Shown: positions 4,840-33,514 of the stretch, piece after piece
Position numbering within the stretch: position 1 is the stretch's first letter
Layout: each line of letters begins with the position of its first letter
NCBI GenBank assembly: GCA_020428995.1
Contig: JAGQLW010000017.1
Coordinates: 1 to 33,514, forward strand
DNA: 33,514 bases
Direction of reading: 5' to 3'
Source of the DNA: Candidatus Moraniibacteriota bacterium
Lineage (GTDB): Bacteria > Patescibacteriota > Minisyncoccia > Moranbacterales > GCA-2747515
The notes under the pieces: generated by a model
Databases searched by the model: none
What the model was told of the DNA's origin: nothing
Seen by the model: only the letters and a program-made list of their open reading frames with translations
Made by a program: the position numbers and the translations under genes

Positions 4840-4841
4840 AA

Positions 4842-4961
4842 TTTCTTTATTTTTGGCATATTTCTTCGTCAAGAATTCCGTTGCGCGCTCGCTGTATAAT
4901 CACATACAGCTTGCTGTGCTACTCATTCTTTCCTTGAACTATATCCAAAAAGTAAAAAAAT
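4842..4961 (+). repeat. R-element copy R3
   Basis: It starts 3 nt after the clpP stop. Core is TTTTGGCATATTTCTTCGTCAAGAAT, inner helix AAGAAT/ATTCTT, apical hairpin GCTGTAT/ATACAGC, and 3' end CCTTGAACTATATCCAAAAAG. Confidence 0.7.
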
Positions 4962-4997
4962 TCTACCATCGTATTATTTTTTTTATGGTGTTTCTCA

Positions 4998-5093
4998 GGT
5001 GTTTTTGTTGATGTCTTGCGCTATTCGCTCGACGTATGTTTATATACGTCTCGCTCCGATGCTCGATACTGCCTTGAATTTCATCCAAAAAGC
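4998..5093 (+). repeat. R-element copy R4 (degenerate)
   Basis: The 5' core is GTGTTTTTGTTGATGTCTTGCG, the apical hairpin is GACGTATG/TATACGTC, and the 3' core is GCCTTGAATTTCATCCAAAAAGC. The outer helix is weak. Confidence 0.5.
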
Positions 5094-5096
5094 AAA

Positions 5097-5228
5097 AGAA
5101 TTTTGGTTGATATATTTCTGTGGTGATTTTTTTCTCACTCGCTATATTTTTATATACAGCTTCCGCCAGTTCGGCTTGCATCGAGTTCTGAGTTGAAGCG
5201 GGTAAGACGGGCATTCAAAAAATAAAAG
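5097..5228 (+). repeat. R-element copy R5 (degenerate, carries an M2 sub-module insertion)
   Basis: The 5' core is TTTTGGTTGATATATTTCTGTGGTG and the apical hairpin ends in ATATACAGC. The inserted module is GCTTGCATCGAGTTCTGAGTTGAAGCGGGTAAG (about 5174-5206). The 3' end is ATTCAAAAAATAAAAG. Confidence 0.45.
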
Positions 5229-5297
5229 TCATTTATTGTTGGGGTATCTTTGGTAAAAAGATACGTTTTAAATCTGGAGTTTTTGCAAAAAAAACAT

Positions 5298-5306
5298 TGG
5301 TATAAT
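5298..5306 (+). promoter_or_regulatory. Extended -10 promoter element TGgTATAAT upstream of recO
   Basis: A perfect TATAAT (5301-5306) is preceded by TG at 5298-5299, about 50 nt upstream of the recO ATG. No well-spaced -35 is present. Confidence 0.45.
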
Positions 5307-5356
5307 TTTGTGCTGGTGTTTTTTTGTCTCGTTTTGCGATATGATAGTGGTTACCT

Positions 5357-16540: not shown

Positions 16541-16660
16541 AGGAATTATGCGTTTGGCACATTTCTTCGTTAAAATTTCGAAAAATCGACACAATATTAT
16601 ACATATTCCTTACTCTTTTTCTCGATTTTGCCTTGAACTGTACTCAAACGTATAATTCCC
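16541..16660 (+). repeat. R-element copy R9
   Basis: It starts 5 nt after the permease stop and ends 7 nt before the rsmI ATG. Outer helix is AGGAATTATGCGTTTG (16541-16556) / CAAACGTATAATTCC (16645-16659) with one G.T. It is a near-twin of R11 in the core (GGCACATTTCT..GTTAAAAT.TCGAAAAATCGAC). Confidence 0.85.
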
Positions 16661-19765: not shown

Positions 19766-19939
19766 GACCTACATGTTTGACAAACTTCTTTGTCGAACGC
19801 TCCAGTGCTCAACTTTTCGCTCGCGAGTGACGGGTCTCACCGGTGTATGTCTATATACACCTTGTTGTGCTCTTCGCGTTCTTCCTCGCCTCTATTCGAG
19901 TCGAAGCGGGTCGAATTTTATCCAAACGTGAAAGTCTTA
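19763..19939 (+). repeat. R-element copy R10 (177 nt, two internal insertions)
   Basis: The 5' arm TAAGACCTACATGTTTG (19763-19779) begins with the tatD TAA stop itself. The 3' arm is CAAACGTGAAAGTCTTA (19923-19939). The core is near-identical to R13 but has extra segments at about 19813-19838 and about 19888-19912 (M2-like TTCGAGTCGAAGCGGGTC). Confidence 0.8.
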
Positions 19940-19958
19940 GAATGTCGAAGTCTTTGAT

Positions 19959-19990
19959 AAAAAAAGCAGTCTTTCTGATTGAAAAGACCG
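19959..19990 (-). terminator. Intrinsic terminator for the minus-strand gene block
   Basis: On the minus strand the stem GTCTTT/AAAGAC (19969-19974 / 19983-19988) is followed by T7, the complement of the A-run at 19959-19965. It lies just downstream of the phosphatase gene end. Confidence 0.45.
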
Positions 19991-20007
19991 TCTTGAGAGT
20001 TGATTTT

Positions 20008-20720
20008 TTATTTTAAAGCGTCCACGGGTATACTTTTTTGTGAAAGTTTGTGTCCTGTGGAATCTGCTTCATAGCATACAATGCCGCAGTTTTGAGGGTT
20101 TGGACACGATATAGCGGTTTCATATGTCCATTCCTCTAATAAAAAGCGGATGTGCCACCGTGTGCGAATATAAAAACTCTTTTGTTGGCACATAGGCGTA
20201 ATATTACGTCGTGCCAGAAAATTCGTAGGCGCACAGCGACGTCTGCGAGACTTTCTCCGCCCGGTGGGCGAGCAAAAAAGGGCCTTTTTGTGTGGAAGTG
20301 TTCTTCAACGAATGGAAAAAAGTGGTTTGCTTCACTGTGTGTCATGTCATATATGAAACCTGGATCTCGTTCACGAAGGAGGAAATCCTGTGCTGTTTTG
20401 GTTTCTTGAAGTTCGTCATGACCATATGAAGAGAGCATTGCATCTATTGTCTGTGTCACCCGTTTATAACCAGAGTGGAAAATGAAATTGGGTATACCGA
20501 ATAGAGAATGAAATGGGGGGCTTATGCGGTGTGCGTGCTTTACTCCTTCGTCAGACAAAGAAATATTGTGATCCGGTGTGCCACGATAACGACCGCGTGA
20601 TTCTTCATCGGGAAAGTAAACAGATCCATTTTTAGTGGCGTTACGTACTGATTCTGCGTGGCGGATTAGTACAAGTAGTTTTGGTGTTGGGGAATTATCA
20701 AATATCGTGTCAACAATCAT
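20008..20720 (-). pseudogene. Histidine phosphatase superfamily (phosphoglycerate-mutase-like) gene, frameshifted near the C-terminus
   Basis: The N-terminal catalytic motif LVLIRHAES is present. The reading frame ends at ..FAHGGTSAFY*, whereas the overlapping ORF 20008..20193 continues in another frame with ..IRFLLEEWTYETAI...NCGIVCYE. That is the expected continuation after the HGG motif. Confidence 0.55.
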
Positions 20721-20775
20721 TGATGCGCACTTTTTTGTTTTGCTGAAAGTGGAATAAAGAGAACTAAGATCGATT

Positions 20776-21664
20776 TTATAGAGATATTGGAGAAAAATCA
20801 ATAATTATTGTTCCAGTGACGTGCAGACAACGGATTGTTGGGAAAAGTTTTTTTTGTGCGGTTTTTGCATGATCAATATTTTCAAAAATACCAATCATTG
20901 TTGATCCAGATCCTGTCATAAAGGATGCGCATGCGCCAGATTGGATTAGTCTAGATTTGATTTGTTTTAATTCTGGATACAGGGTGAATATGTGATTCTC
21001 AAAGTCATTGTGAAGGTGTTGGTATGTTATTGGTTTGTTTTGGTTTAATGTTTCGATTAGTTTTTTTGTAAGAAATACGTTTTGTCCTATTGTTTTATAA
21101 TTTATTGATGAGTATGCGTCTTTTGTGGAGACGCCGAAAAGGGGAAAAATAATTAAGAAGACGAAGCGTGTGTTTGTGTGAATCTTGAATATATCCATAC
21201 CGGCTTCGGAGTCAAACGCGGTTCCGCCATAAAAAAAAATATGGAACATCCATGCCGACCTGTCGTCCGAGAGATTTGATCTCATTTGGTGAAAGAGGAG
21301 TGTTGTAATAATTATAAAGGAGTTTCAAAACTGTCGCCGCATTGGATGAGCCTCCTGCAAGACCTCCTTCAGTAGGTATGTTCTTTTCAATATGAATGTG
21401 TATTGGTTTGGAAGTATTGTATTTCTTTCTAAAAATATCAATAGCTTTTATACAAGTATTTTTGTCATCTGTTGGTATTCGAGGGTCCGAGCAGGTGAGG
21501 GAGTCTTGATCGCTTTGTGTCAGATGTATGATGTCATACAGATCTATCATGTGTTTTATGATGCCCATTTCGTGGTATCCAGAATGTGGACTGTTGGTGA
21601 TCTTACGGATGATATCTGGGGAAAGCGTGATTCGTGCGTATGACTTTTCTTTAATTGTTTTCAT
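20776..21664 (-). pseudogene. ispE: 4-diphosphocytidyl-2-C-methyl-D-erythritol kinase (IspE), split by a frameshift in a T9 run
   Basis: The N-terminal ORF 21212..21664 carries the GHMP motif PTEGGLAGGSSNAA and ends ..GMDVPYFFLWRNRV*. The C-terminal ORF 20776..21285 reads ..FFYGGTAFDSEAG... and carries TGSGSTMIGIF. The two frames join at the homopolymer at 21231-21239. Confidence 0.75.
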
Positions 21665-21782
21665 GGCCGTATGAGATCATGCAAATAACAGAAATACCTT
21701 CACCTTTTCCACTTTTCCACATGCGGTGAGACCGTCACCGCTGGTTGCTGTATGCCGATCAATTTTTCTGAGAGATTGAGTA

Positions 21783-22937
21783 TTAGTGCGATATTTTTTT
21801 TATTTGTACGAATGATTTTTCGAGTTTTGGTCGTTTTGCTTCAATTGAAATCGACACATTGTTTATAGTGATATTTTTCTTTCTGAAGATATCTTTGACG
21901 TGTTTTACGTATCGCGTGCTATCGTTGATTCCTTGTTGATTCATTTCTGTGGCGTATACGCCGAGTGATCCTGTGCCACAGGCACTGCCGAGAGTATTGC
22001 ATAGTGCATGAAGAACAGCGTCACCATCTGATTCTCCGTCTAGGATTATTTCGTCTGAAAAAACCAGGCCGCCCAGAATTAGCCCTTTTTTTTGTTTTGC
22101 TGAAACGGTGGGAGTCCTGACCAATTGCAACGTATGTCGTGTGTTCTTTTTAATTAAAGTCTGAAAAATGATTAAATCTTCGGGGGTAGTGACTTTGAGG
22201 TTATCATAAGATCCTGGTGAGACACTAACATTAACACCAGTATTTTCAAGTAATGACATGTTATCGGTCCCAACGAATTTTTCTTTGATAGCTTTTTGAT
22301 GACACTCCAAGAAGGTTTGTTTGGAGGCGATTTGTGGTGTTTGAATGTGCCACAAGTTTTCACGTGGCATTGTGCTTGTTACTTACATCTTTTTATCTGT
22401 TTGTTTTATGGTGTCTTTTACTGGAACTGCTAGGGTTACACCCTCATTTTCTTTTAATGTTGATAAGGCGTTGTTGATGTCTTTTGGGTGTACGAAGGGT
22501 TGTGCGCCATCGTGGATCATGACAATGCCGTCGTTGGCTGCGTGTACACCAGTATACGAAGATTTTTGACGTGTGTCACCTCCTGTGAGTATATGGCGTA
22601 CTTTGGTGAAGGAGTGTTTTTGTACTAGATTGTGGAAAGTTTTTTGATCGTTTTTGTTTACAGTATACGAAGATTTTTGACGTGTGTCACCTCCTGTGAG
22701 TATATGGCGTACTTTGGTGAAGGAGTGTTTTTGTACTAGATTGTGGAAAGTTTTTTGATCGTTTTTGTTTACTACGAGTATGATGTTGTTAACATACTTG
22801 CGTTGTTCAAAGATGTTAATGGTGTAGTATATGAGTGGTTTTTTAAAGCTGTACAGTAGTTTGTTGTAGTCAAGACCCATTCGTGCGCCAGCGCCTGCAC
22901 ATAGAATTATGGCTGTTATGTGTTCATATGATTTCAT
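21783..22937 (-). pseudogene. ispDF: Fused IspD/IspF (MEP cytidylyltransferase / MEcPP synthase-like) gene, interrupted by an in-frame TAA and carrying a 111-bp tandem duplication
   Basis: The IspD N-terminus reads ITAIILCAGAGARMG. The frame reads ..VPVKDTIKQTDKKM-TAA-VTSTMPRENLWHIQTPQ.., continuous apart from the stop at 22383-22385. The C-terminal part is IspF-like (LILGG....ESDGDAVLHAL) but lacks expected metal ligands and ends early. Confidence 0.65.
22551..22772. repeat. Perfect 111-bp tandem duplication (2 units) inside ispD
   Basis: Unit 22551-22661 is repeated identically at 22662-22772. This duplicates 37 codons in frame (VNKNDQKTFHNLVQKHSFTKVRHILTGGDTRQKSSYT twice). Confidence 0.95.
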
Positions 22938-22971
22938 GGGAAAAAATTTCTCACCATATTTTATGATTTAT

Positions 22972-22998
22972 TTGACCTGTATATTCTAGAAGTATAAA
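22972..22998 (+). promoter_or_regulatory. Candidate promoter TTGACC-15 nt-TATAAA ahead of the hypothetical gene and ATPase operon
   Basis: The -35-like hexamer is at 22972-22977 and the -10-like hexamer at 22993-22998. The spacer is short, so the call is weak. Confidence 0.25.
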
Positions 22999-23157
22999 AC
23001 AAAAGGCGTGACAATTGAAATGTAACTTTTTTGAGTGTTTTTTTGGAGTGGCGTGGCTTTGCCTTGCACTTTGCTTTGTTTGGGTTTATTCTGTTTTTGT
23101 CCGTAGTTCTTTGGAGTATAGAATTTTTTGTCTACACTTTCGTGGGAGGTGGTGTTA

Positions 23158-23510
23158 TGAGTGCTGATGTGGTTTATGATCGGAGGCCTATTTCTGATCT
23201 TGGTGAATCCGTCCGGCGCACGATTATTGATCGTGCGTGTGAATGGGTGATCCGTCATTGTTATGGTGGGCATCTCCCGTCGCATGTTTCTGTTTCTCAT
23301 GTTTTTTTGGATGAGAGTTATGGTTTGCGTGAATATGAGGCTGCTTCGCGTGATATTCTCTTCGTGTTCGCTGTTTTTAATAGTGCTCTTTATTCCGTTC
23401 GTGTGATTCATGGTTTTGGGTGTCCTTGGGATGATTCCTCGTTTTCTGTCAAAAAGGTTGGCGCATCGTTTCAGGTGTCTGATTCTGTTAATGACGATGT
23501 TCCTGCGTGA
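23158..23510 (+). CDS. Hypothetical protein (117 aa)
   Basis: The ATG at 23158 is preceded by GGAGG (23146-23150) at 7-nt spacing. Codon and amino-acid composition match the other + strand genes. I recognise no family motif. Confidence 0.5.
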
Positions 23511-23586
23511 TTTTTTTTCAATGTTGCCAAGTGTAAAAAACGGTGCTATGATTAGTACCGTTTTCATTTACTTATTTTTTTTTCTT

Positions 23587-23898
23587 ATGGGGACAGATCT
23601 TGATGAAATTATTGTTGCAGAGAAAGAAGCGCAAAAAATTGTTGATGAGGCACGTGAGAAGGCTCGTTCTTTGACAGAGGGGGTACGTTCTTATTATGAG
23701 CAAGTATCTCAAAAGAATTTGTCTGAGTTGCGCTTGGATCGCGAACGTGTTTTTTCTGAGCAAGATAAAAAATTGTCTGATGAGAAGGAGGCTGTGATTT
23801 CTCAGTGGAACAGTCGACAAAAGGTGATTGTTGACGGTGCAAATAATCGTCGTGCTGACGCGCTTTCTGCGTCAATGCGTGTTTTTTTTAATGAATAG
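23587..23898 (+). CDS. V/A-type ATPase small coiled-coil peripheral-stalk subunit (G/H-like)
   Basis: 103 aa, highly charged and helical (IIVAEKEAQKIVDEAREKARSL...). It lies immediately upstream of subunit I, as ahaH/atpG does in A/V operons. The start is set at ATG 23587. Confidence 0.5.
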   Translation: MGTDLDEIIVAEKEAQKIVDEAREKARSLTEGVRSYYEQVSQKNLSELRLDRERVFSEQDKKLSDEKEAVISQWNSRQKVIVDGANNRRADALSASMRVFFNE

Positions 23899-23916
23899 TT
23901 TTGATTTTGTTGCCCT

Positions 23917-25875
23917 ATGATGCTGGACATGCAAAAAATTCGTCTTCTTGTACACCACGATGCTTCTTTGCGAGTGATGTCTGTTGTGCAGAAATTGGGT
24001 TTTGTTGAATTGACTCGTGTTGACAACAAGGAACTTTCTCGTCGACAGAAGAGTGATTTTGATTTGAATCATGAAAGTGCATTATTAGATTTTGCTGTTG
24101 CATTTCTCACTCCTTTTTTTCAGCCATCTGACAAGGTGCAGTACATGCTTACTGGTGGACGATTTATTACGACACACAAAAATATTTCTCAATTATGGGA
24201 GAAGTTTGATTACTCATCTGTTTTGTCTTCGGTTGAGAAATTGCAATCTTCTTTTTACAAAAACAGTGCAAGTCAAAAAGATGTGGAGGCGAAAAGGAAA
24301 CAACTTTTGCCATGGGTTGGGTATCCTGGTTTGCTTGATGTTCCTCGTCAGACGCGACTGACACGCACTGTTTTTTTGCTTGCTTCTTCAGCACGATCTG
24401 TTTCTGGCAATCAGGATTTTGCAAAAATGTTGCTCCAGATTCTTTCTTCTTCTGGATGTGTGTTTCATTTTGTTCGTGTGAGCCCTAGTGCTGTTGTTGT
24501 GACGTTTCTGTCTGGTGACGCGTCTGTTTTTGAAAAGTTTTTTTCTGATTCTGTTTTTGATATTGTCGACCTTCCTGTTGTTTCATCTTCTGTTTCAGAG
24601 GCTCTTTTGTCTTGTGACCGTGATTTGCAACAATTGATTCGTGAAAGGTCTTCTCTTGAAAAAGAGGTTCGCTTGTTGGCGCGCAATCTTCCACAACTAC
24701 AAGCACTTAGTGACGACGTATACTGGAAGAAGTCTTGTCACAATGTTATATCGGGATCGTGGGCAACACATTCGGTTGATGTCTTTGAAGGGTGGATTCC
24801 TGTGTCTGCGCGTGATGCTTTTGTAAAGGCTTTGAAGCGTGTAACGCCGTATTTTTCTTTGGAGAATATCGCTCCAGATGATGAAGAGCAACCCCCTGTT
24901 GAGATTGTGAATACAAAAGCGGTTTTGCCTTTTGAGTCGGTGACTCGTTTGTATGGTTTGCCTGGAAGTAAGGATTTGGATCCCACTCCGTATCTTGTCG
25001 GTTTTTTTCTCATTTTTTTTGGTTTGTGTTTGACTGATGTGATCTATGGTATCGTACTCAGTACCATTACTGGGTATGTTTTGTGGAGGTACACTGTTTC
25101 AAAGGAAACGAAAGCGTTGTTATCAGTTGTGTTTCTGGGAGGTATTGCGTCGTTTTTCATTGGTCTATTTTTTGGTGGTTATGCTGGAATTGATATGGCT
25201 TCTATGCCGTCATCTTTACAATTTCTCCAATTGTTTGATCCTGTAAAGGATCCAATAGCTGTTTTTCTGCTAGCACTCAGTTTTGGTGTTGTGCATATTT
25301 TGACTGGATTGGTTTTGGGTATTATGCGTCAGGCACAACAAGGTCTTCTTGTGGATGGTCTTTTGTCTCATGGCTCATGGATTGTTGTTCTTCTTTCATT
25401 GGTTTATTTTGCTTTGGAGCAGGCAGGTATTTTTGGTTTAGCTATTGGTGGATCGTTGGTGATTGGAGCGTTTGTTTTTTTAGTGTTGGCTCAGGGACAT
25501 CGAGAGAAGACTGTTGTTAAAAAAGTACTTACTGGTTTGGTGAGTCTGTATGATAGTGTGGGGTATTTTTCAGATTTGCTGTCGTATTCTCGTCTAATGG
25601 CGCTTGGACTAGCAACGAGTGCATTGGCGTTTGCGATGAATTTGGTTGCCGAATTGGTGTCTGGTGTTCCGTATGTTGGAAACGTAATTGCTGTCTTAGT
25701 GTTGATTGTTGGGCATACGTTTAATATTGCATTGAATACTCTTGGAGCGTTTATTCATAGCGCGCGGTTGCAGTTTGTGGAGTTTTTCGGCAAATTTATT
25801 ATTGATAGTGGGCGTGTTTTTGCCCCTTTTCATCGAGAGGAGCGTCATGTGATTATTCGTGATGATGTTTCTTAG
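23917..25875 (+). CDS. atpI: V/A-type ATPase subunit I (a-subunit, stator/proton channel)
   Basis: 652 aa. It has a soluble N-terminal half and a polytopic C-terminal half with the conserved Arg context LLSYSRLMALGLA. Confidence 0.85.
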   Translation: MMLDMQKIRLLVHHDASLRVMSVVQKLGFVELTRVDNKELSRRQKSDFDLNHESALLDFAVAFLTPFFQPSDKVQYMLTGGRFITTHKNISQLWEKFDYSSVLSSVEKLQSSFYKNSASQKDVEAKRKQLLPWVGYPGLLDVPRQTRLTRTVFLLASSARSVSGNQDFAKMLLQILSSSGCVFHFVRVSPSAVVVTFLSGDASVFEKFFSDSVFDIVDLPVVSSSVSEALLSCDRDLQQLIRERSSLEKEVRLLARNLPQLQALSDDVYWKKSCHNVISGSWATHSVDVFEGWIPVSARDAFVKALKRVTPYFSLENIAPDDEEQPPVEIVNTKAVLPFESVTRLYGLPGSKDLDPTPYLVGFFLIFFGLCLTDVIYGIVLSTITGYVLWRYTVSKETKALLSVVFLGGIASFFIGLFFGGYAGIDMASMPSSLQFLQLFDPVKDPIAVFLLALSFGVVHILTGLVLGIMRQAQQGLLVDGLLSHGSWIVVLLSLVYFALEQAGIFGLAIGGSLVIGAFVFLVLAQGHREKTVVKKVLTGLVSLYDSVGYFSDLLSYSRLMALGLATSALAFAMNLVAELVSGVPYVGNVIAVLVLIVGHTFNIALNTLGAFIHSARLQFVEFFGKFIIDSGRVFAPFHREERHVIIRDDVS

Positions 25876-26117
25876 GGTTGTGTTTTGGTGTTTTTTTATC
25901 TTTCTTTTGAGTCGGGAAAGGTGCGAAAACATTGAAGCGGAACAATGTTTCTGACGCTTCTCGTTTATTGATTTAAATAATGTGTAATTAAGTAATTGTT
26001 TGCGGGTATGTGCATTTTGTATGACTTGAGAGATGCTGGTAAAAATTTTTTATTTTTTACCTATTTATTTATCTTATTGAGTTGTATCTCTAATGAACAT
26101 ATTTCGTATATTATGTT

Positions 26118-26600
26118 ATGACGGATGTATTTACGGTAGGTCTTGTGTTTGCGGGTGCTGGCATTGCAGCGTCTATGACGTTTGTAGGTAGTGCAATTGG
26201 TATGGGTATTGCTGGTCAGGCTGGTGCTGGTGTTGCGTCTGAGAAGCCACAACTGTTTGGTAAAATCCTTGTCCTTCAGGTGCTTCCTGGTTCTCAGGGG
26301 ATTTATGGTCTTGTTGTTGCTGTGTTGATTCTGGTCACTGCCGGTGTGATTGGTGGTGGGGAGGGAACTTCTGTCTTGACTTTGTCTCAAGGATTTCAGT
26401 ATTTTCTTTCTGGGTTTCCTATTGGTTTTGCAGGATTGGTTTCTGCGAAACTTCAGGGAATGGTTTCTGCCGCAGGTATTGCCATGATTGCTAAAGATGA
26501 GTCGCTTGCAGGTCGCGCAACAACACTTGCTGTTATGGTTGAGACGTGGGCGTTGTTTGGTCTTTTGGTGAGTGTGTTGTTGGTACTTTTTGCTGCGTAA
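26118..26600 (+). CDS. atpK: V/A-type ATPase subunit K (duplicated 4-TM proteolipid c-subunit)
   Basis: 160 aa with four hydrophobic helices and Gly-rich TM1 and TM3. The LPGSQGIYG (TM2), SAKLQG (TM3) and MVETWALFG (TM4) motifs are present. The only membrane carboxylate is Glu142. Confidence 0.88.
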   Translation: MTDVFTVGLVFAGAGIAASMTFVGSAIGMGIAGQAGAGVASEKPQLFGKILVLQVLPGSQGIYGLVVAVLILVTAGVIGGGEGTSVLTLSQGFQYFLSGFPIGFAGLVSAKLQGMVSAAGIAMIAKDESLAGRATTLAVMVETWALFGLLVSVLLVLFAA

Positions 26601-26622
26601 TTTTCTGTTTCGTAGAAAGCAG

Positions 26623-26744
26623 CAGGACTTACGTGTTTGGCACATTTCTGTGTTAAAATCTCGAAAAATCGACGCAATATTGTATATATTCCTTACGATT
26701 TTTCTCAATTTTGCCTTGAACTGTACTCAAACACGTAAGTCCTG
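26623..26744 (+). repeat. R-element copy R11 (between atpK and atpE)
   Basis: A perfect 17-bp outer helix joins CAGGACTTACGTGTTTG (26623-26639) and CAAACACGTAAGTCCTG (26728-26744). Inner pairings are ACATTTC/GAACTGT and GAAAAATCG/CGATTTTTC, and the apical hairpin is AATAT/ATATT. Confidence 0.9.
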
Positions 26745-26804
26745 AAACCTGAAGGATGTGTGTTGGACACAAGTCTTAATTTTCTGTTTTGTTAATGTTA
26801 ATTT

Positions 26805-27374
26805 ATGGCTCTTAAGGATATTACTGAAAAAATTCTTTCTGATGCTCGTTTGGAAGCTCAAAAGATTGTTGATTCCTCAACGGTTTTTGTTGAAGAGGAA
26901 CATAAGCGTGTTGATGCGCGTGTGTCTGTTGAGGAGAGTGATTATCGATCTGAGACAGAGCATATGTTGGCAGACCGTCGCACGGTTTTTTTTTCTCGCT
27001 TACAACAAGAACTTCAGTTGGATTTGCAGACAAAAAAGCGGGCAATTGTTGAGGGTGTTTTTGCAGATTTGCGCTCCTCACTTTTGGAAAAGGCATCGTC
27101 AGATTATGCTTTGTGGTGTCGTTCTTGTTTGCGTTCTTACGATGGTGAAAATAGTGTGAGCATGGTTGTTCCGGTTGGCATGTCTGCTGTTGCTCGGGAT
27201 GTTGTTAAAGAACTCGGTAAAAATTTTTCTGTTGTTGAACGCAACGATGTTGTGACTGGATTTGTTCTTGAGGGGGAGAATTTTGTTGGGGATTTTTCTG
27301 TTGAGCGTTTGCTGGATGAGCGTCGCAAAGAAGTGGAGGTTGTTGTTGCTGGTGTTTTGTTTGAGAATGATTAG
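26805..27374 (+). CDS. atpE: V/A-type ATPase subunit E (peripheral stalk)
   Basis: 189 aa. It has an N-terminal long helix (ITEKILSDARLEAQKIVD) and a globular C-terminus. Its operon position is after K. Confidence 0.75.
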   Translation: MALKDITEKILSDARLEAQKIVDSSTVFVEEEHKRVDARVSVEESDYRSETEHMLADRRTVFFSRLQQELQLDLQTKKRAIVEGVFADLRSSLLEKASSDYALWCRSCLRSYDGENSVSMVVPVGMSAVARDVVKELGKNFSVVERNDVVTGFVLEGENFVGDFSVERLLDERRKEVEVVVAGVLFEND

Positions 27375-27403
27375 TAAATTATGTTTCTCTTGTTGCTGTT
27401 ATT

Positions 27404-28393
27404 ATGACAACTGAGTTTGACTTACAATATACGTATTCTGCTAGTCGTGCGAAGGCTCTTGAGTCTGAGCTTTTGAATGAGAACCAACTCGAACGTTTGG
27501 TTGGTGCAAAGGACATGTCAGAAATTACTATGGTACTTCAGGATACTTTTCTGTCTGATTTATTGCCGTCTGGTGGTGCATCTGTTTTTGATCTCTCACA
27601 TCTTTTGCGTAAGAGTTTGTCTCGTGCAAAGCAAACGATTTCTTCTATTGCTCCTGATCCTGCAATCTTGGATGTCTTGTGGTTGCGATATGATTATTAT
27701 AATCTCAAGACGATTGTGAAGGGGAGAAGGGCAGGTCTTTCAGACGAGGAAATTATTGAACGATGTTTTTTTGCTGCAAAGTATGATCCGCGAGTTCTTT
27801 TAGATTATGCATCTACTGGTCGTTTGGGGAATTTGCACAAAGAAATGTCTGTAGCGTATGAGAAGGCATTAGAGTCTTTGACGGTTTATGGTATTGATGT
27901 TTTGATGAATCGTGGTTACTTTATTCATGTTCGCAAGTGTGCTGTTGTCATTGATAATGAATTTGTGAGTGACTATGTTGCTTTTTTGACGGATTTCTTC
28001 AATCTTCAAGCACAACTTCGTCTTGTTACTTTGCGTCACTTAACTGTTCCGGAAGCATTCATCCAGGGTGGTCGGTTTACTCCTTCTGATCTTGATTCGG
28101 TTGAGAAGATTTATGCGGCTTTTGAGACGTTTGGTGATGCATTTTTGTGGACTGAGGCGATTGCACGTCATCGTGATCGTGGGGAATACCTTTTGCTTCA
28201 GAAGGTTATGGATGATTATGAGTTGAAGTTTGTTCAGGAGCATGGTCGTAGTATTTTTTCTTTTGTTCCATTGTTTGCTTTTTTCATTGCGCGTCGGAAT
28301 AATCTTCAGATCGTTCGTACTATTGTGACAGCAAAGCAGGCTGGTATGGATGAACGGGATTTGCGTGTCATGTTACGTCGTCTTTATGCATAA
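27404..28393 (+). CDS. atpC: V/A-type ATPase subunit C (d-subunit, central socket)
   Basis: 329 aa and all-helical. It begins ..YTYSASRAKALESELL, typical of AtpC. Its operon position is between E and F. Confidence 0.75.
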   Translation: MTTEFDLQYTYSASRAKALESELLNENQLERLVGAKDMSEITMVLQDTFLSDLLPSGGASVFDLSHLLRKSLSRAKQTISSIAPDPAILDVLWLRYDYYNLKTIVKGRRAGLSDEEIIERCFFAAKYDPRVLLDYASTGRLGNLHKEMSVAYEKALESLTVYGIDVLMNRGYFIHVRKCAVVIDNEFVSDYVAFLTDFFNLQAQLRLVTLRHLTVPEAFIQGGRFTPSDLDSVEKIYAAFETFGDAFLWTEAIARHRDRGEYLLLQKVMDDYELKFVQEHGRSIFSFVPLFAFFIARRNNLQIVRTIVTAKQAGMDERDLRVMLRRLYA

Positions 28394-28410
28394 AACCGTA
28401 AAAATATTTT

Positions 28411-28758
28411 ATGTCTAATCGTGTTGCTATTATTGGTCCTCAAGATGTTGTGTCGGGTTTTTCTGCTGTTGGTGTGATTGCGTTTGTTGCTAACACCAGT
28501 GCTGATGTGATGCGTCTGTTGGAGGAATTTTCTCGTTCATTTGAGTCTTCCTTGGATTCAGAGATCGACCGTTACCCCGTTGTGATTGTTATGGAGGAGT
28601 TGCTTAAGGATATTCCTCAGGATGAGTATGCTCGTGTTACGCGACATGTCTTGCCAGCTGTGGTTGCCTTACCGGGTTTGTCTGGTTCATCTGGATATAC
28701 GTCGGAACGACTTCGAGCATTGGCTCAGAGGGCTGTTGGTATTGACATTTTCTCCTAG
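28411..28758 (+). CDS. atpF: V/A-type ATPase subunit F
   Basis: 115 aa with the N-terminal motif VAIIGPQDVVSGFSAVGV. It lies immediately upstream of A. Confidence 0.8.
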   Translation: MSNRVAIIGPQDVVSGFSAVGVIAFVANTSADVMRLLEEFSRSFESSLDSEIDRYPVVIVMEELLKDIPQDEYARVTRHVLPAVVALPGLSGSSGYTSERLRALAQRAVGIDIFS

Positions 28759-28760
28759 TG

Positions 28761-28884
28761 TCAGGAATAACGTGTTTGGCGCATTTCTTTGTTAAGAGCT
28801 GTGGTGCTCGACATCGTATATAACATACAGTTTACTTCGCTCCTCGCTCTTGCCTCGAACTGCACTCAAACACGTTATTTCTGA
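28761..28884 (+). repeat. R-element copy R12 (between atpF and atpA)
   Basis: It starts 3 nt after the atpF stop. Outer helix TCAGGAATAACGTGTTTG (28761-28778) pairs with CAAACACGTTATTTCTGA (28867-28884) with one G.T. Inner helices are GCATTTC/GAACTGC and AAGAGC/GCTCTT. Confidence 0.88.
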
Positions 28885-28963
28885 AAGTATTTAGATTTTA
28901 TATGTTTTGCTGATGATGTCTTTTTGACTTATTTATAATTACTTATTTTTTTGGATTTCTCTT

Positions 28964-30739
28964 ATGGATACGAATGTACAAATAGGCACAATTGTACGTG
29001 TCACAGGACCTCTGGTTAAGGCATCTGGTATGCATAATGCAAAGATGTATGAGCTTGTTAAAGTCTCAAGCGAAAAATTGCTTGGTGAAATTGTTGAACT
29101 TAATGGAGATATTGCTTCCATTCAGGTTTATGAAGATACTGCTGGTGTGCGTCCAGGAGATATTGTTGAACGAACAGGTGAGACGATGAGTGCTGAGTTA
29201 GGACCCGGTCTTTTGGAATCTTTTTATGATGGTGTTCAGCGTCCACTTAAGGTCATTCAGGAAAAATCAGATAGTTATTTTATTGCACGTGGTATTGAAG
29301 CGCCTGGTTTGGACCGGGAACGAAAGTGGGATTTTGTCTCCCGCGCGAAAGAAGGTGATGTTGTTTCCGGAGGGGATGTTTTGGGTGTTGTTCAGGAGAC
29401 AACATTGATTGAACATCGTGTCATGGTTCCTCCATATGTGTCTGGTCGGGTTGGGAAAATTTCTTCTGGATCATTTACTGTTTTGGATATTGTCGCTGAG
29501 ATTGTTTCTGAAGATGGTCAGACACATAAAATTTCTTTGATGCAACGTTGGCCGATCCGACGTCCGCGACCTTCACAGGGAAAACAATTTCCCAAGACGC
29601 CACTTGTTACGGGTATGCGTATTCTTGATACTTTGTTTCCTGTTGCCAAGGGAGGTGCAGCAGCAATTCCTGGTGCTTTTGGTACAGGGAAATCAGTGAC
29701 TCAGCAATCTTTGGCAAAATACTGTGATGCACAGGTTATTGTCTATATTGGCTGTGGTGAACGTGGTAATGAAATGACAGAAGCTGTGACGGAATTTCCT
29801 GAGTTGATTGATCCAAACTCTGGGGAACCTCTTATGAAGCGCACAATTTTGATTGCAAATACGTCGAACATGCCTGTTGCTGCTCGTGAAGCATCTGTGT
29901 ACACAGGAATTACAATCGCTGAATATTATCGTGACATGGGATATAGTGTCGCATTGATGGCTGACTCGACATCTCGTTGGGCAGAAGCAATGCGTGAAAT
30001 GTCTGGTCGACTTGAAGAAATGCCAGGCGAGGAAGGTTACCCTGCGTATTTGGCCTCGCGTACGGCTGAGTTTTATGAACGTGCTGGTGTTGTGACATGT
30101 TTGGGTGCTGACAAGCGTTCAGGTGCTTTGACTGTTGTTGGTGCTGTGTCTCCTGCTGGTGGAGATCTTTCCGAGCCAGTTTCACAGGCAACACTTCGTG
30201 TGACAAAAGTGTTTTGGGGGCTTGATGCTTCGCTTGCGTATAAGAAACACTTCCCATCGATTAACTGGCTTACTTCGTATTCTTTGTATACAGATAACTT
30301 TGGTGAATATTGGGCAAATAAGATTGCTGAGGATTTTTCTTTATTGCGTACATTGGCCATGGATTTGCTTCAGCAGGAAGCCAAGTTGTTGGAAATTGTG
30401 CGTCTTGTTGGGCAAGAGGCGTTGTCAAACTCAGAGAAGCTTGTCTTGGAAGTGTCCCGCATGCTTCGAGAAGACTTTTTGTTTCAGAATGCTTTTGATC
30501 CAGGAGATGCTTACACTTCTCCACAGAAGCAGTATGGTATTTTGAAATCAATCTTGACGATTTATCTTTCTGGAAAGGATGTTGTTTCTTCTGAGGATTT
30601 TGATTTTTTACAGCTTCGAAGTTTGTCTTGTGTAAAAGATGTTTCAACGCTTAAGACTTTTTCTGGGGATGATCTTGATGGACAATATGATGAGTATCAA
30701 AAACGAGCTGTGAAAGAATTGTCTGGACTTGCTCACTAG
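28964..30739 (+). CDS. atpA: V/A-type ATPase catalytic subunit A
   Basis: 591 aa. It carries the Walker A motif GAFGTGKSV, the A-subunit-specific non-homologous insertion after the N-terminal barrel, and GERGNEM and SRWAEA motifs. Confidence 0.95.
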   Translation: MDTNVQIGTIVRVTGPLVKASGMHNAKMYELVKVSSEKLLGEIVELNGDIASIQVYEDTAGVRPGDIVERTGETMSAELGPGLLESFYDGVQRPLKVIQEKSDSYFIARGIEAPGLDRERKWDFVSRAKEGDVVSGGDVLGVVQETTLIEHRVMVPPYVSGRVGKISSGSFTVLDIVAEIVSEDGQTHKISLMQRWPIRRPRPSQGKQFPKTPLVTGMRILDTLFPVAKGGAAAIPGAFGTGKSVTQQSLAKYCDAQVIVYIGCGERGNEMTEAVTEFPELIDPNSGEPLMKRTILIANTSNMPVAAREASVYTGITIAEYYRDMGYSVALMADSTSRWAEAMREMSGRLEEMPGEEGYPAYLASRTAEFYERAGVVTCLGADKRSGALTVVGAVSPAGGDLSEPVSQATLRVTKVFWGLDASLAYKKHFPSINWLTSYSLYTDNFGEYWANKIAEDFSLLRTLAMDLLQQEAKLLEIVRLVGQEALSNSEKLVLEVSRMLREDFLFQNAFDPGDAYTSPQKQYGILKSILTIYLSGKDVVSSEDFDFLQLRSLSCVKDVSTLKTFSGDDLDGQYDEYQKRAVKELSGLAH

Positions 30740-30837
30740 ATCTTAATTGTTAATGAAATTATAAATTGTAGCAGATCATTTGTGTTTTCCTTGTGTTTTC
30801 CTTGGTTGTGCAAATGGTGTCTTGCGTATCATATTTT

Positions 30838-32217
30838 ATGAAAGAGTATAAAACAGTACAATCAATTTCCGGCCCCCTTGTTGTTGTGGAGGGTGTTTCT
30901 GGTGTTGCTTATGATGAACTTGTTGAGGTTTTGGTTCCTGGTGAAAAGGCGCCACGACTTGGGAAGGTTCTTGATGTGTCGTCTGATCGTGCTGTTGTGC
31001 AGATGTTTGAACCAACATCTGGCACACAGACAGCTGATACGCGCGCACGTTTTACAGGTCAAGCGCTTAAGATCGGTGTTTCTACGGATTTGTTGGGGCG
31101 TATTTTTAATGGTAAGGGGGATCCAATTGATAATGGTCCTGCTATTATTCCTGAGAAACATCTTGATATTAGTGGCGCACCAATTAATCCATGGAGTCGT
31201 CAGTATCCGAATGATTTTATTCAAACGGGTGTTTCATCATTAGATGTCATGAACACGCTTGTGCGTGGTCAGAAGTTGCCAATTTTTTCTGGTGCAGGAT
31301 TGCCTCACTTAAAACTGATGGCGCAAATTGCGCGACAGGCGAAGGTAGCTAGTCAGTCTGGTGATGAATCTGGTTTCGCTATTGTTCTTGCCACACTTGG
31401 ATTGCCGTTTGAAGAAGCAGAATATTTGCGTCATTCACTTGAAGAGTCTGGTGCTTTGGAGCGGGCAGTGGTTTTTTTGAACACAGCTGCTGATCCTGTT
31501 GTTGAGCGTATTGCTACACCGCGTATGGCGTTGACCGTCGCGGAGTATCTTGCGTTTGAAAAGGGAAAACACGTTTTGGTTATCCTTGGTGACATGACAA
31601 ACTATTGTGAGGCTCTTCGTGAAGTCTCTGGTGCTCGTAAAGAAGTTCCTGGTCGTCGTGGTTTTCCAGGGTATATGTATACTGACCTTTCGACAATTTA
31701 TGAACGAGCAGGGCGGTTGAAAGGGTGTGAGGGAACGATTACGCAAATTCCGATTCTTACCATGCCCGATGATGACAAGACTCATCCAGTTCCAGATCTT
31801 ACGGGGTATATTACTGAAGGGCAGTTTATTATTTCTCGTGAGTTGTTCAAAAAAGGCGTGACGCCACCGGTTGACGTGCAGGGTTCGTTGTCGCGTCTTG
31901 CGGGTTCTGTTCAGGGGAAGCGTACTAGAGAAGACCATGCGCAAGTGAAAGATCAGTTGTTTGCGTCATATGCTTTGGGGCGTGATGCACGTGAGTTGGC
32001 TGTTGTGTTGGGTGAATCTTCTTTGGATGAAGTTGATTTGGCACACATTGCGTTTTCTGATGCGTTTGAGCGAGAATTTATTTCGCAAGATGAGTCAGTG
32101 GATCGATCATTGGAAGAATCTTTGGATTTGGGGTGGAAGCTTTTGGCGATGTTGCCACAGTCTGCTCTTAAGCGCGTGAAAGCTGAAATGATTGAGAAGT
32201 ATCTTCCTAAGAAGTAG
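30838..32217 (+). CDS. atpB: V/A-type ATPase non-catalytic subunit B
   Basis: It begins [19 protein letters not shown] and carries [24 protein letters not shown]. The start is set at ATG 30838, because the track ORF begins at an upstream GTG. Confidence 0.93.
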
Positions 32218-32220
32218 CTG

Positions 32221-32345
32221 TCAGAACTGACGTTTTTGGTAAACTTCTTTGTCGAACGCTCCAGTGCTCACCGGTGTATGTTTGCATACACCTTGTTGCG
32301 CCCTTCGTGTTCTTCTCGAATTTTATCCAAACACATCAGTTTTGA
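32221..32345 (+). repeat. R-element copy R13 (between atpB and atpD)
   Basis: It starts 4 nt after the atpB stop. Outer arms are TCAGAACTGACGTTTTTGG (32221-32239) and CCAAACACATCAGTTTTGA (32327-32345). Inner helix is GAACGC/GTGTTC and the apical hairpin is GGTGTATG/CATACACC. Confidence 0.85.
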
Positions 32346-32388
32346 AATTGTTTGATCTCATTTTGTTTTATTAATTATTTTTTGTGAT

Positions 32389-33012
32389 ATGTCTTTGAAA
32401 GTTAGTCCAACACGAATCAATCTTTTGAATTTGCGTAAAGAACTGCGTGTCGCTGAACGCGGGTATAAGCTTTTGAAAGATAAGCGTGATGGTTTGATGA
32501 AAAAGTTTATGTCCGTTACTCGTGAGGCACGACTGCTTCGTCAAGATGTTGAGAAGCGTCTTGGTAGTGCTTTTTCTAGTTATGTGCGTGCTTCGGCGAT
32601 GATTCCAAAACCGGTGATGGATAATGCTTTTTTGTTGCCAAATGCTAATGTTTCTCTTGAAGTTTCTACAAAAAGTGTTATGTCTGTTGCAATTCCTCAG
32701 TTTACAGTTTCCAAGGAAGGCGTTGCTTTTTCGTATGGTTTTTTGGAAACGACAGGTGATCTTGATGTTGCCGTGGCGGCTTTTGATGATGTCTTTGTTG
32801 ACGTTGTTCGATTGGCAGAATTGGAAAAAACGGTTGAAAGATTGGCAATTGAGATTGAAAAAACACGTCGTCGCGTGAGTGCTTTGGAATATGTGCGTAT
32901 TCCGAGTTTGGCGCAGACTATTCGTGTGATTGGGATGCAGTTGGAAGAGCGTGCACGTGATGCTGTTGTGGCAACGATGCGTGTCAAAGCAATGATTGAA
33001 GCGAAAGGATAG
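32389..33012 (+). CDS. atpD: V/A-type ATPase subunit D (central rotor stalk)
   Basis: 207 aa. It carries VSPTRINLLNLRKELRVAERGYKLLKDKRDGL and the C-terminal helix TRRRVSALE. Confidence 0.9.
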   Translation: MSLKVSPTRINLLNLRKELRVAERGYKLLKDKRDGLMKKFMSVTREARLLRQDVEKRLGSAFSSYVRASAMIPKPVMDNAFLLPNANVSLEVSTKSVMSVAIPQFTVSKEGVAFSYGFLETTGDLDVAVAAFDDVFVDVVRLAELEKTVERLAIEIEKTRRRVSALEYVRIPSLAQTIRVIGMQLEERARDAVVATMRVKAMIEAKG

Positions 33013-33034
33013 AGTTTTTGTCGGGTTTTTGTTT

Positions 33035-33072
33035 AAAAATAGAGGCATCTATAGATGCCTCTATTTTTTTTG
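33035..33072 (+). terminator. Rho-independent terminator closing the ATPase operon
   Basis: An 11-bp perfect stem ATAGAGGCATC (33039-33049) / GATGCCTCTAT (33054-33064) has loop TATA. It is flanked by an A-run upstream and T8 downstream. Confidence 0.85.
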
Positions 33073-33140
33073 TTTAGGATGTGTTTTTTTGTGGTATACT
33101 GGACATATCTTTTATACATGATTTTAAGTTTTGTTTTTTC

Positions 33141-33514
33141 ATGTCTTTTTTTGTAAAAACTTTTCTTTTGCGTACAGTATTGTTTGTCAGTATTGTTTTT
33201 GGCGTGTCTTTTTCTTCTTCTGTTTTTGCTGCTTCTTGCACAATCAGTCCAGTTGATTTAGGCGGAGGATCATATCGCATGGATTATACAATCGATTGGT
33301 CGGGCGAGACGTATACTTTAATGGAAATTTCTGGAGCGGGTAGTCAGCCGTATATTTCAAAAACAGGTTCAACGCAGTCAGGGAATTTTACGCATACACC
33401 AACAATAACAACAACATACCAACTTACTCCATATACTGGTTTTAGTCCTGGGTATTTACCGCTATGTGAAGCAACCGTTACCATAACAGCGTGTACATGG
33501 AATGGATCAACATC
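33141..33514 (+). CDS. Secreted or surface protein, N-terminal fragment (runs off the window)
   Basis: The frame is open from ATG 33141 to the window end and is absent from the ORF track because it has no stop. It has a signal-peptide-like N-terminus, MSFFVKTFLLRTVLFVSIVFGVSFSSSVFA-AS, followed by a Thr/Ser/Gly-rich mature region. Confidence 0.55.
   Translation, partial: MSFFVKTFLLRTVLFVSIVFGVSFSSSVFAASCTISPVDLGGGSYRMDYTIDWSGETYTLMEISGAGSQPYISKTGSTQSGNFTHTPTITTTYQLTPYTGFSPGYLPLCEATVTITACTWNGST

Follow-up and report, generated by a model that had tools for sequence, protein, structure and literature searches.

The window analysed here is the whole of a 33,514-bp contig from a metagenome-assembled genome (MAG) of Candidatus Moranbacteria (candidate phyla radiation (CPR)/Patescibacteria) deposited at NCBI (locus tags KC736_015xx, proteins ~MCA9364550-MCA9364568). 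Between 20008 and 22937 its minus strand carries one co-oriented string of three genes: ispDF (22937..21677), ispE (21664..20776) and a branch-1 histidine phosphatase gene (20720..20008). Together they form a single operon, which lies head-on to the other genes of the window, all of which point the same way. IspD, IspE and IspF act at the third, fourth and fifth steps of the methylerythritol phosphate (MEP) pathway. All three genes of the block are interrupted. Lesions were mapped by three-frame reading combined with tblastn searches using intact homologues, which yielded the following features:

21677..22937, minus strand: ispDF (fused IspD cytidylyltransferase and IspF cyclodiphosphate synthase), probable pseudogene; Pfam IspD (PF01128) and YgbB (PF02542) on two open reading frame (ORF) pieces
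22550-22660 and 22661-22771, minus strand: perfect tandem repeat of 2 x 111 bp (37 codons, in frame) inside IspD; repeat search and TRF
22383-22385, minus strand: lesion 1, in-frame TAA in IspD between KQTDKKM and VTSTMPRENLW, a substitution; three-frame reading
~22132-22145, minus strand: lesion 2, change from frame -3 to -2 at the IspD/IspF linker, no homopolymer; homologue alignment and three-frame reading
22086-22093, minus strand: lesion 3, change from frame -2 to -3 in a sense-strand A8 (plus-strand T8), one A too many compared with an in-frame A7; tblastn segments
21794-21801, minus strand: lesion 4, change from frame -3 to -2 in a sense-strand A8 (plus-strand T8), one A too few; tblastn segments
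~21746-21760, minus strand: lesion 5, change from frame -2 to -1 ahead of the IspF C-terminus (TATSGDGLTACGK...), no homopolymer; tblastn segments
20776..21664, minus strand: ispE (CDP-ME kinase, GHMP family), probable pseudogene split into ORFs of 150 and 169 aa; Pfam GHMP_kinases_N and _C
21231-21239, minus strand: lesion 6, +1 insertion in a sense-strand T9 (plus-strand A9) compared with an in-frame T8; tblastn and three-frame reading
20008..20720, minus strand: histidine phosphatase gene (phosphoglycerate-mutase family, branch 1, PF00300), probable pseudogene; Pfam His_Phos_1
~20140-20160, minus strand: lesion 7, frame change in the phosphatase gene near HGGT and a T5 run; joining of frames against His_Phos_1

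Lesions in ispDF

The two domains of IspDF are not encoded in one uninterrupted frame: a TAA codon and four frame changes intervene. The TAA aligns to a residue that is variable in homologues. Homologue segments with VGxGQDSHRFS map to 22131-22090 in frame -2 (E ~1e-5), and lesion 2 puts this invariant Asp/His motif of IspF outside the frame that continues from IspD. From there on IspF is distributed over several frames, with the N-terminal VAIGQDSHRFS in frame -2 (22131-22090), the core in frame -3, the next part in frame -2 (21801-21751, where the homologue segment K..LSKIL.LE..IGI maps) and the C-terminus in frame -1 (21745-21686, homologue C-terminal segments with E values of 3e-5 to 2e-3). 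Lesion 4 yields a premature stop at 21783-21785 in the frame as it stands. The metal-binding Asp-x-His motif of IspF (GQDSH) is invariant in 98 of 98 homologues. It is encoded in the window solely between lesions 2 and 3, out of frame with the rest of the domain, and the frame as it stands reads LVRTPTV where the motif belongs.

After repair of the lesions, the translation matched the IspD profile with 189.9 bits (positions 1-219 of 221) and the YgbB profile with 103.2 bits (positions 3-148 of 155), and it aligned end to end with the intact homologues P0121 (46% identity) and P0122 (41%). The YgbB score of the repaired IspF (103 bits) compares with 141-147 bits in intact homologues, and 10 of 68 conserved columns deviate in IspDF, against a homologue mean of 1.8. 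An earlier note on this DNA had described the IspF domain as degenerate and truncated, a description that did not hold. Truncation was rejected because both of the missing ends are present in other reading frames; the domain is complete, if frameshifted four times, and its odd residues are mostly traits of its subfamily.

Compared with solved enzymes, several catalytic positions had first seemed to be decayed (IspF His42 to Glu, loss of GDIG, ATTTE to ATSGD, and IspD HDxARP to HDGAQP). These positions were then rechecked by alignment with the closest homologues (P0121-P0150), and decay of catalytic residues was rejected since the changes are common to the closest intact IspDF proteins. Among the top 30 homologues, the position of IspF His42 is occupied by N in 27 and by D, E or K in the remaining three; the position of the IspD Arg (HDxARP) is N in 27 of 30. 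These positions are equivalent to His42 of IspF and Arg109 of IspD in E. coli, His42 being the third zinc ligand of canonical IspF. Judged by these alignments, the unusual residues of IspDF are mostly native traits of a CPR/DPANN IspDF subfamily and not decay. Members of this subfamily, which natively lack His42 and the Arg of HDxARP, occur in complete MEP clusters (contig L097, described below). CPR/DPANN-type IspDF enzymes may differ mechanistically from those of E. coli.

Single frameshifts in ispE and in the phosphatase gene

In tblastn, the matches of homologues to ispE lie in frame -1 as far as ~21230 and continue in frame -2 from 21237. The gene therefore has no uninterrupted frame, the switch falling within the T9 run. 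This insertion is the single lesion in ispE, which is otherwise well conserved. Repaired IspE is 49% identical to an intact IspE over 92% of its length, the N- and C-terminal GHMP domains are present, and the ATP-binding GGLAGGSSNAA and MTGSGST motifs match conserved columns. The repaired protein matches 64 of the 71 columns that are conserved at >=95%; 7 of 71 deviate, compared with a homologue mean of 0.9, and the changes are mostly conservative. A change from Lys to Arg in the N-terminal part was considered as decay and rejected, since Arg is 98% conserved in the IspE subfamily.

The phosphatase contains the catalytic RHG/RHA motif of its branch, as LIRHAES. Its profile positions 150-188 are encoded in another frame, so that the full fold is not found in one frame. 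When the two frames were joined, the match to His_Phos_1 improved from 55.5 to 68.8 bits, and its coverage of the profile from 1-150 to 1-188 of 194. The frameshifts reported in the earlier note for the phosphatase gene (~20146-20160) and for the T9 run of ispE were thus confirmed, by a gain of 13 bits with coverage up to 188/194 in the former and by the tblastn frame switch at 21230-21237 in the latter. The in-frame TAA that it reported for ispDF was likewise found, at 22383-22385.

The lesions recur in independent assemblies

Comparison contigs (L006-L009, L094, L095 and L183) were retrieved by exact-product look-up from other assemblies of the same organism. They carry the labels of the BioSamples SAMN08389173, -174 and -175, whose reads include run SRR6747769, and follow two assembly naming styles; a literature search on the sample and run accessions found no paper. 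The contigs are gap-free and 99.9-100% identical to the window over the overlaps. Each of the seven lesions is present with exactly the same bases in two or more of these independent short-read contigs, which together represent three BioSamples. The TAA at 22383-22385 is found in L094, L095 and L183, the A8 at 22086-22093 is identical in L008, L009, L095 and L183, and the A8 at 21794-21801 is identical in L006-L009 and L095. The 150-aa N-terminal IspE product is identical on four other contigs, gap-free across the T9 run, and the region of the phosphatase lesion is identical in L006 and L007. A single nucleotide polymorphism was found between samples, at 20868 (C/T, Ala to Thr in ispE).

One of these contigs, the SPIRE scaffold L095 (WANG18-1_SAMN08389175_METAG-scaffold_33027), matches the window at 100% identity as far as 21644 and then continues into DNA of 50-62% GC that encodes a response regulator. 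An alternative arrangement with ispDF beside a response regulator (L095, 748-2053) was considered and rejected: the scaffold is chimeric, with a jump in GC at the junction.

The plus-strand coding sequence of 25.5 kb contains 11 homopolymer runs of >=8 nt, two of them T9, which are all in frame; no lesion was found there. The block contains four such runs; three of them are out of frame, compared with 0/11 in the plus-strand genes (Fisher p = 0.009). All seven lesions lie within 2.9 kb of 28.4 kb of coding sequence, for which the chance is ~1e-7 if a random spread is assumed. Since the lesions are shared by independent contigs and clustered in 2.9 kb, random sequencing error is excluded as their cause. 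The earlier note had argued against random error from at least four independent defects in the block. The argument stands with seven reproducible lesions in one block, while the independence of the targets was overstated, the three genes being one operon.

The 111-bp duplication

The 111-bp repeat in ispDF is the sole large tandem repeat on the contig. On the plus strand, the junction between the two units reads ...GATCGTTTTTGTTTA followed directly by CAGTATACGAAG..., with a 2-nt microhomology (GT) that is compatible with an artefact as well as with a real origin. L094 and L183, which come from two other, independent assemblies, contain exactly one copy of the unit with the same flanks on both sides. 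The 184-aa IspD product with the repeated 37 residues is recorded in NCBI alone; an exact look-up did not find it among other assemblies, and an exact 24-mer from the unit had no match in JGI metagenomes. With one copy, the IspD domain aligns gap-free to solved IspD structures. Since L094 and L183 have one copy and the duplicated product is confined to NCBI, we treat the duplication as probably an error of the deposited assembly and otherwise as no more than a minor allele. The perfect duplication reported in the earlier note is thus present in the window (22550-22771); it is single-copy in L094 and L183 and was not counted as a lesion.

Tandem duplications made during assembly or contig merging have the same form, an exact two-copy, head-to-tail repeat present in only one assembly of the same population. 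The difference is that here a real minority allele may have been collapsed by the other assemblers. The case calls for caution with MAGs, as the most conspicuous feature of the locus, a perfect 111-bp duplication, fails to reproduce across assemblies.

Neighbouring genes, genetic code and strand composition

The plus strand encodes a housekeeping set comprising nusA, ppa, tig, clpP, recO, a DUF11 protein gene, tgt, pgeF, a class II aminoacyl-tRNA synthetase gene, pepA, an M16 peptidase gene, an AI-2E transporter gene, rsmI, metG and tatD. Past the minus-strand block, the plus strand continues with a V/A-type ATPase operon (subunits G-like, I, K, tentatively E, C, F, A, B and D). All 24 plus-strand genes are apparently undisrupted ORFs, as the earlier note had stated, and for 21 of them the Pfam match is nearly full-length. 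The match is partial for V-ATPase subunit I and weak for the G-like subunit, and a 189-aa plus-strand ORF (26805-27374) has no Pfam match. The intact genes of the window all share one orientation. Pfam-supported minus-strand genes are confined to 20008-22937 (His_Phos_1; IspE with GHMP_kinases_N/_C on two ORFs; IspD and YgbB on two ORFs), and the five other long minus-strand ORFs of the window have no Pfam match. The block is thus the only minus-strand gene block of the window, again in agreement with the earlier note. Two further features flank it:

19967..19990, minus strand: terminator-like stem-loop followed by a T run, 18 nt past the phosphatase stop; consensus match alone in a pattern scan
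22938..23030, no strand assigned: spacer from the start of ispDF to the first plus-strand ORF on the V-ATPase side; ORF layout

The stem-loop is likely the end of the operon. A divergent promoter region is presumed to lie within the spacer, in which the pattern scan gave no strong promoter match. Between the block and the V-ATPase operon lies a plus-strand ORF (23031-23510, 155-159 aa) with a hydrophobic N-terminal stretch, which belongs to no Pfam family and is called as a gene in two assemblies.

The stop codons of the 24 plus-strand genes are TAG in 12, TAA in 7 and TGA in 5 cases. Because TAA, TAG and TGA all terminate plus-strand genes, the standard genetic code applies and TAA is not reassigned.

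Strand asymmetry is extreme along the whole contig (GC skew +0.12 to +0.34, AT skew -0.08 to -0.38), and third codon positions of the plus-strand genes show a GC skew of +0.56 and an AT skew of -0.48. Strong GC skew was also seen on other Patescibacteria contigs (L092 -0.35, L012 +0.24, L010 +0.18). On the sense strand of the block the GC skew is +0.05, -0.35 and -0.42 at codon positions 1, 2 and 3, and the codon-position structure persists. The third positions of the block are thus adapted to the minus strand, which indicates long-resident genes and recent decay. The density of homopolymer runs of >=8 nt is 1.4 per kb in the block and 0.43 per kb in the plus-strand genes.

In other parts of the window, clpP is followed by a 517-nt gap (4840-5356) and then recO, with neither clpX nor a recognisable remnant of it; the other long intergenic gaps of the window contain no Pfam-recognisable gene remnants either. 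A repeated intergenic element occurs in three spacers (16541-16649, 26623-26744 and 28762-28886); it is ~110-125 nt long and has inverted repeats of ~17 nt at its ends (CAGGAATTACGTGTTTG ... CAAACACGTAATTCCTG). Two of its copies are 89% identical, and the element resembles miniature inverted-repeat transposable elements or repetitive extragenic palindromes; it has no Rfam match. No Rfam family and no tRNA was found in the window.

Related loci and origin of the block

MetG of the window is at most 64% identical to proteins of GTDB species genomes, with the best matches in Moraniibacteriota and other Patescibacteria. Synteny was examined via MetG in these genomes, and none of 80 loci had MEP, phosphatase or V-ATPase genes near metG-tatD. 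Conversely, 80 V-ATPase loci from metagenomes showed no linkage with MEP genes. The nearest relatives according to TatD are the contigs L100 and L101 (50-52% identity), in which the order M16-AI2E-rsmI-metG-tatD is kept. Where the window has the block and the V/A-type operon (19766-33514), these contigs carry an F-type operon atpI-B-E-F-H-A-G-D-C (L100 10001-18869, L101 6044-12005), and neither has MEP or phosphatase genes at the tatD locus. The tatD junction is thus rearranged in the lineage of the window, where one type of ATP synthase seems to have been replaced in situ by the other. A close intact orthologue of the block genes was not found in the protein collection searched.

IspE is closest to sequences from Fibrobacterota and Patescibacteria (47-49% identity), and one Patescibacteria MAG contains an intact ispH-ispF-ispE-dxr-ispD cluster. 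The nearest matches to IspDF are fused proteins encoded on archaeal-looking contigs (46% and 41% identity): L096, with ispDF-ispE-bacA-uppS near an RpoL-like gene, and L097, where a complete MEP set lies among genes for ribosomal proteins of archaeal type. The order of ispDF followed by ispE in the window is as in L096 and L097. The block is a mosaic in that IspDF is nearest to L096/L097, while IspE (20776-21664) is only 25-32% identical to the IspE encoded there (L096 1139-1981, L097 11500-12372). With bifunctional IspDF enzymes (Campylobacter jejuni, PDB 1W55/1W57; clade of CPR, DPANN and Fibrobacterota-Chlorobiota-Bacteroidota (FCB)) the repaired protein shares the order of IspD and IspF in one gene and alignment over the full length. 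It differs in that the window gene is interrupted and in that its subfamily departs from canonical enzymes at the positions equivalent to His42 of IspF and Arg109 of IspD in E. coli.

Probable gene decay and alternative explanations

The block is with high probability a genuine, recent pseudogenisation of one MEP operon. The genes would have been under long purifying selection in their minus-strand orientation, followed by a recent loss of selection. A first inactivating event, or the MEP route having become dispensable in a cell that depends on a partner, would have freed all three genes from selection at once; since they form one co-oriented operon, a single loss of selection accounts for the clustering of lesions in all three. 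Six indels would then have accumulated, four of them in A/T runs (T9, A8, A8 and T5) and likely via replication slippage, together with one nonsense substitution. Given the homology retained over the full length, the subfamily residues and the codon-position structure, the decay would be recent. A modest relaxation of constraint may be reflected in the excess of deviations at conserved IspDF and IspE columns and in the lower YgbB score. The enzymes for the third, fourth and fifth steps of the MEP pathway could no longer be made, and the host presumably obtains isoprenoid precursors or products from a partner.

Several points weigh against this reading. The databases searched contained no close relative with an intact orthologue (best IspE 49%, best IspDF 46%), so that relaxed selection is not measurable by the ratio of nonsynonymous to synonymous substitutions, and the excess of deviations at conserved columns could in part reflect the position of the window as an outgroup to the homologue sets. 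The confirming contigs all come from one study and probably from one population. With its single lesion in a T9 run, ispE could still yield some product. The genes covered are ispD, ispE and ispF of this contig, and loss of the whole MEP pathway would go beyond them.

Comparable gene erosion is known from Blochmannia, Buchnera and Mycobacterium leprae, where homology is likewise retained, indels and stop codons are clustered in one dispensable pathway, many indels lie in A/T homopolymers and neighbouring genes are intact. In contrast to these, the present host belongs to an episymbiont lineage of free-living size (CPR, Moranbacteria) in which pseudogenes are rarely reported, the deposited annotation gives the pieces as ordinary coding sequences, and a close intact orthologue is missing.

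If the frameshifts and the stop were consensus errors of the MAG, the genes would be intact in the cells. Four of the six frameshifts do sit in A/T runs, the MAG contig carries a 111-bp duplication that other assemblies lack, and the SPIRE scaffold covering the locus is chimeric beyond 21644. Every lesion besides the duplication is, however, identical in contigs of at least two other assembly pipelines with three BioSample labels, two frameshifts and the TAA lie outside homopolymers, and 11 of 11 runs of >=8 nt in the plus-strand genes are in frame, which makes such an artefact extremely improbable. Only slightly less improbable is expression by non-standard decoding, that is, transcriptional slippage or ribosomal frameshifting at A/T runs combined with read-through of the TAA, as an analogy to Buchnera and Blochmannia would suggest and as the earlier note had offered as an alternative. 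In these insect endosymbionts transcriptional slippage at long A/T runs rescues singly frameshifted genes, and full-length products are made with ~30% in-frame transcripts (PMC3017870; review PMC5009743). The pattern of ispE, a single indel in a 9-nt T tract of an otherwise conserved gene, is the same, and two of the IspF shifts lie in A8 runs. For IspDF, however, decoding would have to change frame four times, forwards as well as backwards and twice at sites without repeats, and would also have to read through a TAA that is the normal stop of seven genes, so that the joint yield would be negligible; the phosphatase is also off the pattern of slippage-rescued genes. All three stop codons are in use, and a rescued IspE alone cannot restore the pathway, since the IspD and IspF steps are beyond such rescue. 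Recoding could therefore rescue ispE at most, and the alternative proposed in the earlier note is not supported.

Another explanation is that the MEP block arrived by horizontal transfer as cargo of the V/A-type ATPase operon that replaced the F-type operon, was never needed and has decayed since. The nearest relatives fit this: they have the same M16-AI2E-rsmI-metG-tatD order, next to it the operon of an F-type ATP synthase, and lack MEP genes there. The closest IspDF homologues lie on archaeal-looking (DPANN-like) contigs, and the literature describes the MEP enzymes of CPR, DPANN and FCB as one clade (PMC6107057, PMC8204110). Set against this, the third positions of the block are minus-strand-adapted, and codon structure and subfamily residues are kept, which indicates long purifying selection in place. 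Moreover, IspE is closest to Patescibacteria/Fibrobacterota sequences (47-49%) and only 25-32% identical to the IspE beside the closest IspDFs, and 0/80 related V-ATPase loci carry MEP, phosphatase or tatD genes. We regard this history as unlikely, and co-transfer of the block with the ATPase operon is speculation. A little more weight, still small, may be given to orientation-dependent gene loss. Head-on genes in strongly strand-biased CPR genomes, whose sense strand is rich in A, would gain long A/T runs and be purged preferentially by slippage frameshifts; the block would have been caught in the middle of this process, with ispE perhaps partly rescued by slippage. That the sole disrupted block is also the sole minus-strand block may be a coincidence, as the block is one transcription unit, or may reflect head-on fragility or dispensability in a skewed genome; we offer this as an idea and not as a finding. 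If true, orientation-dependent loss would help to explain why nearly all genes point the same way and why pathways such as MEP have been lost in a patchy manner.

Consequences for annotation and for the MEP pathway in CPR bacteria

NCBI records list the pieces of the block as IspD (184 aa, MCA9364560), IspF (195 aa, MCA9364559), a hypothetical protein (150 aa, MCA9364558) and a phosphoglycerate mutase family protein (194 aa, MCA9364556). These fragments are ordinary coding sequences there, none of them marked as a pseudogene. Gene callers in other assemblies chose spurious plus-strand ORFs over the ispD piece. Since the public annotation gives the fragments as normal coding sequences, automated metabolic reconstruction from the MAG would credit the organism with IspD and IspF steps that the genome can no longer perform.

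The MEP pathway is sparse in CPR bacteria, and its enzymes form a joint CPR/DPANN/FCB clade (PMC6107057); MEP clusters are also known from Woesearchaeota (PMC8204110). Loss of MEP function in a reduced, partner-dependent genome, as the earlier note had proposed, is supported by the origin of the window from a CPR MAG and by this sparse distribution (PMC6107057). The lesions are ordinary in kind, and the locus documents gene decay in progress in a CPR genome; it overturns nothing and will hardly surprise a specialist. It is evidence, direct and reproducible, that a pathway is being lost in a CPR bacterium, and it fits the view that the sparse occurrence of the MEP pathway arose at least partly by loss together with dependence on a partner.

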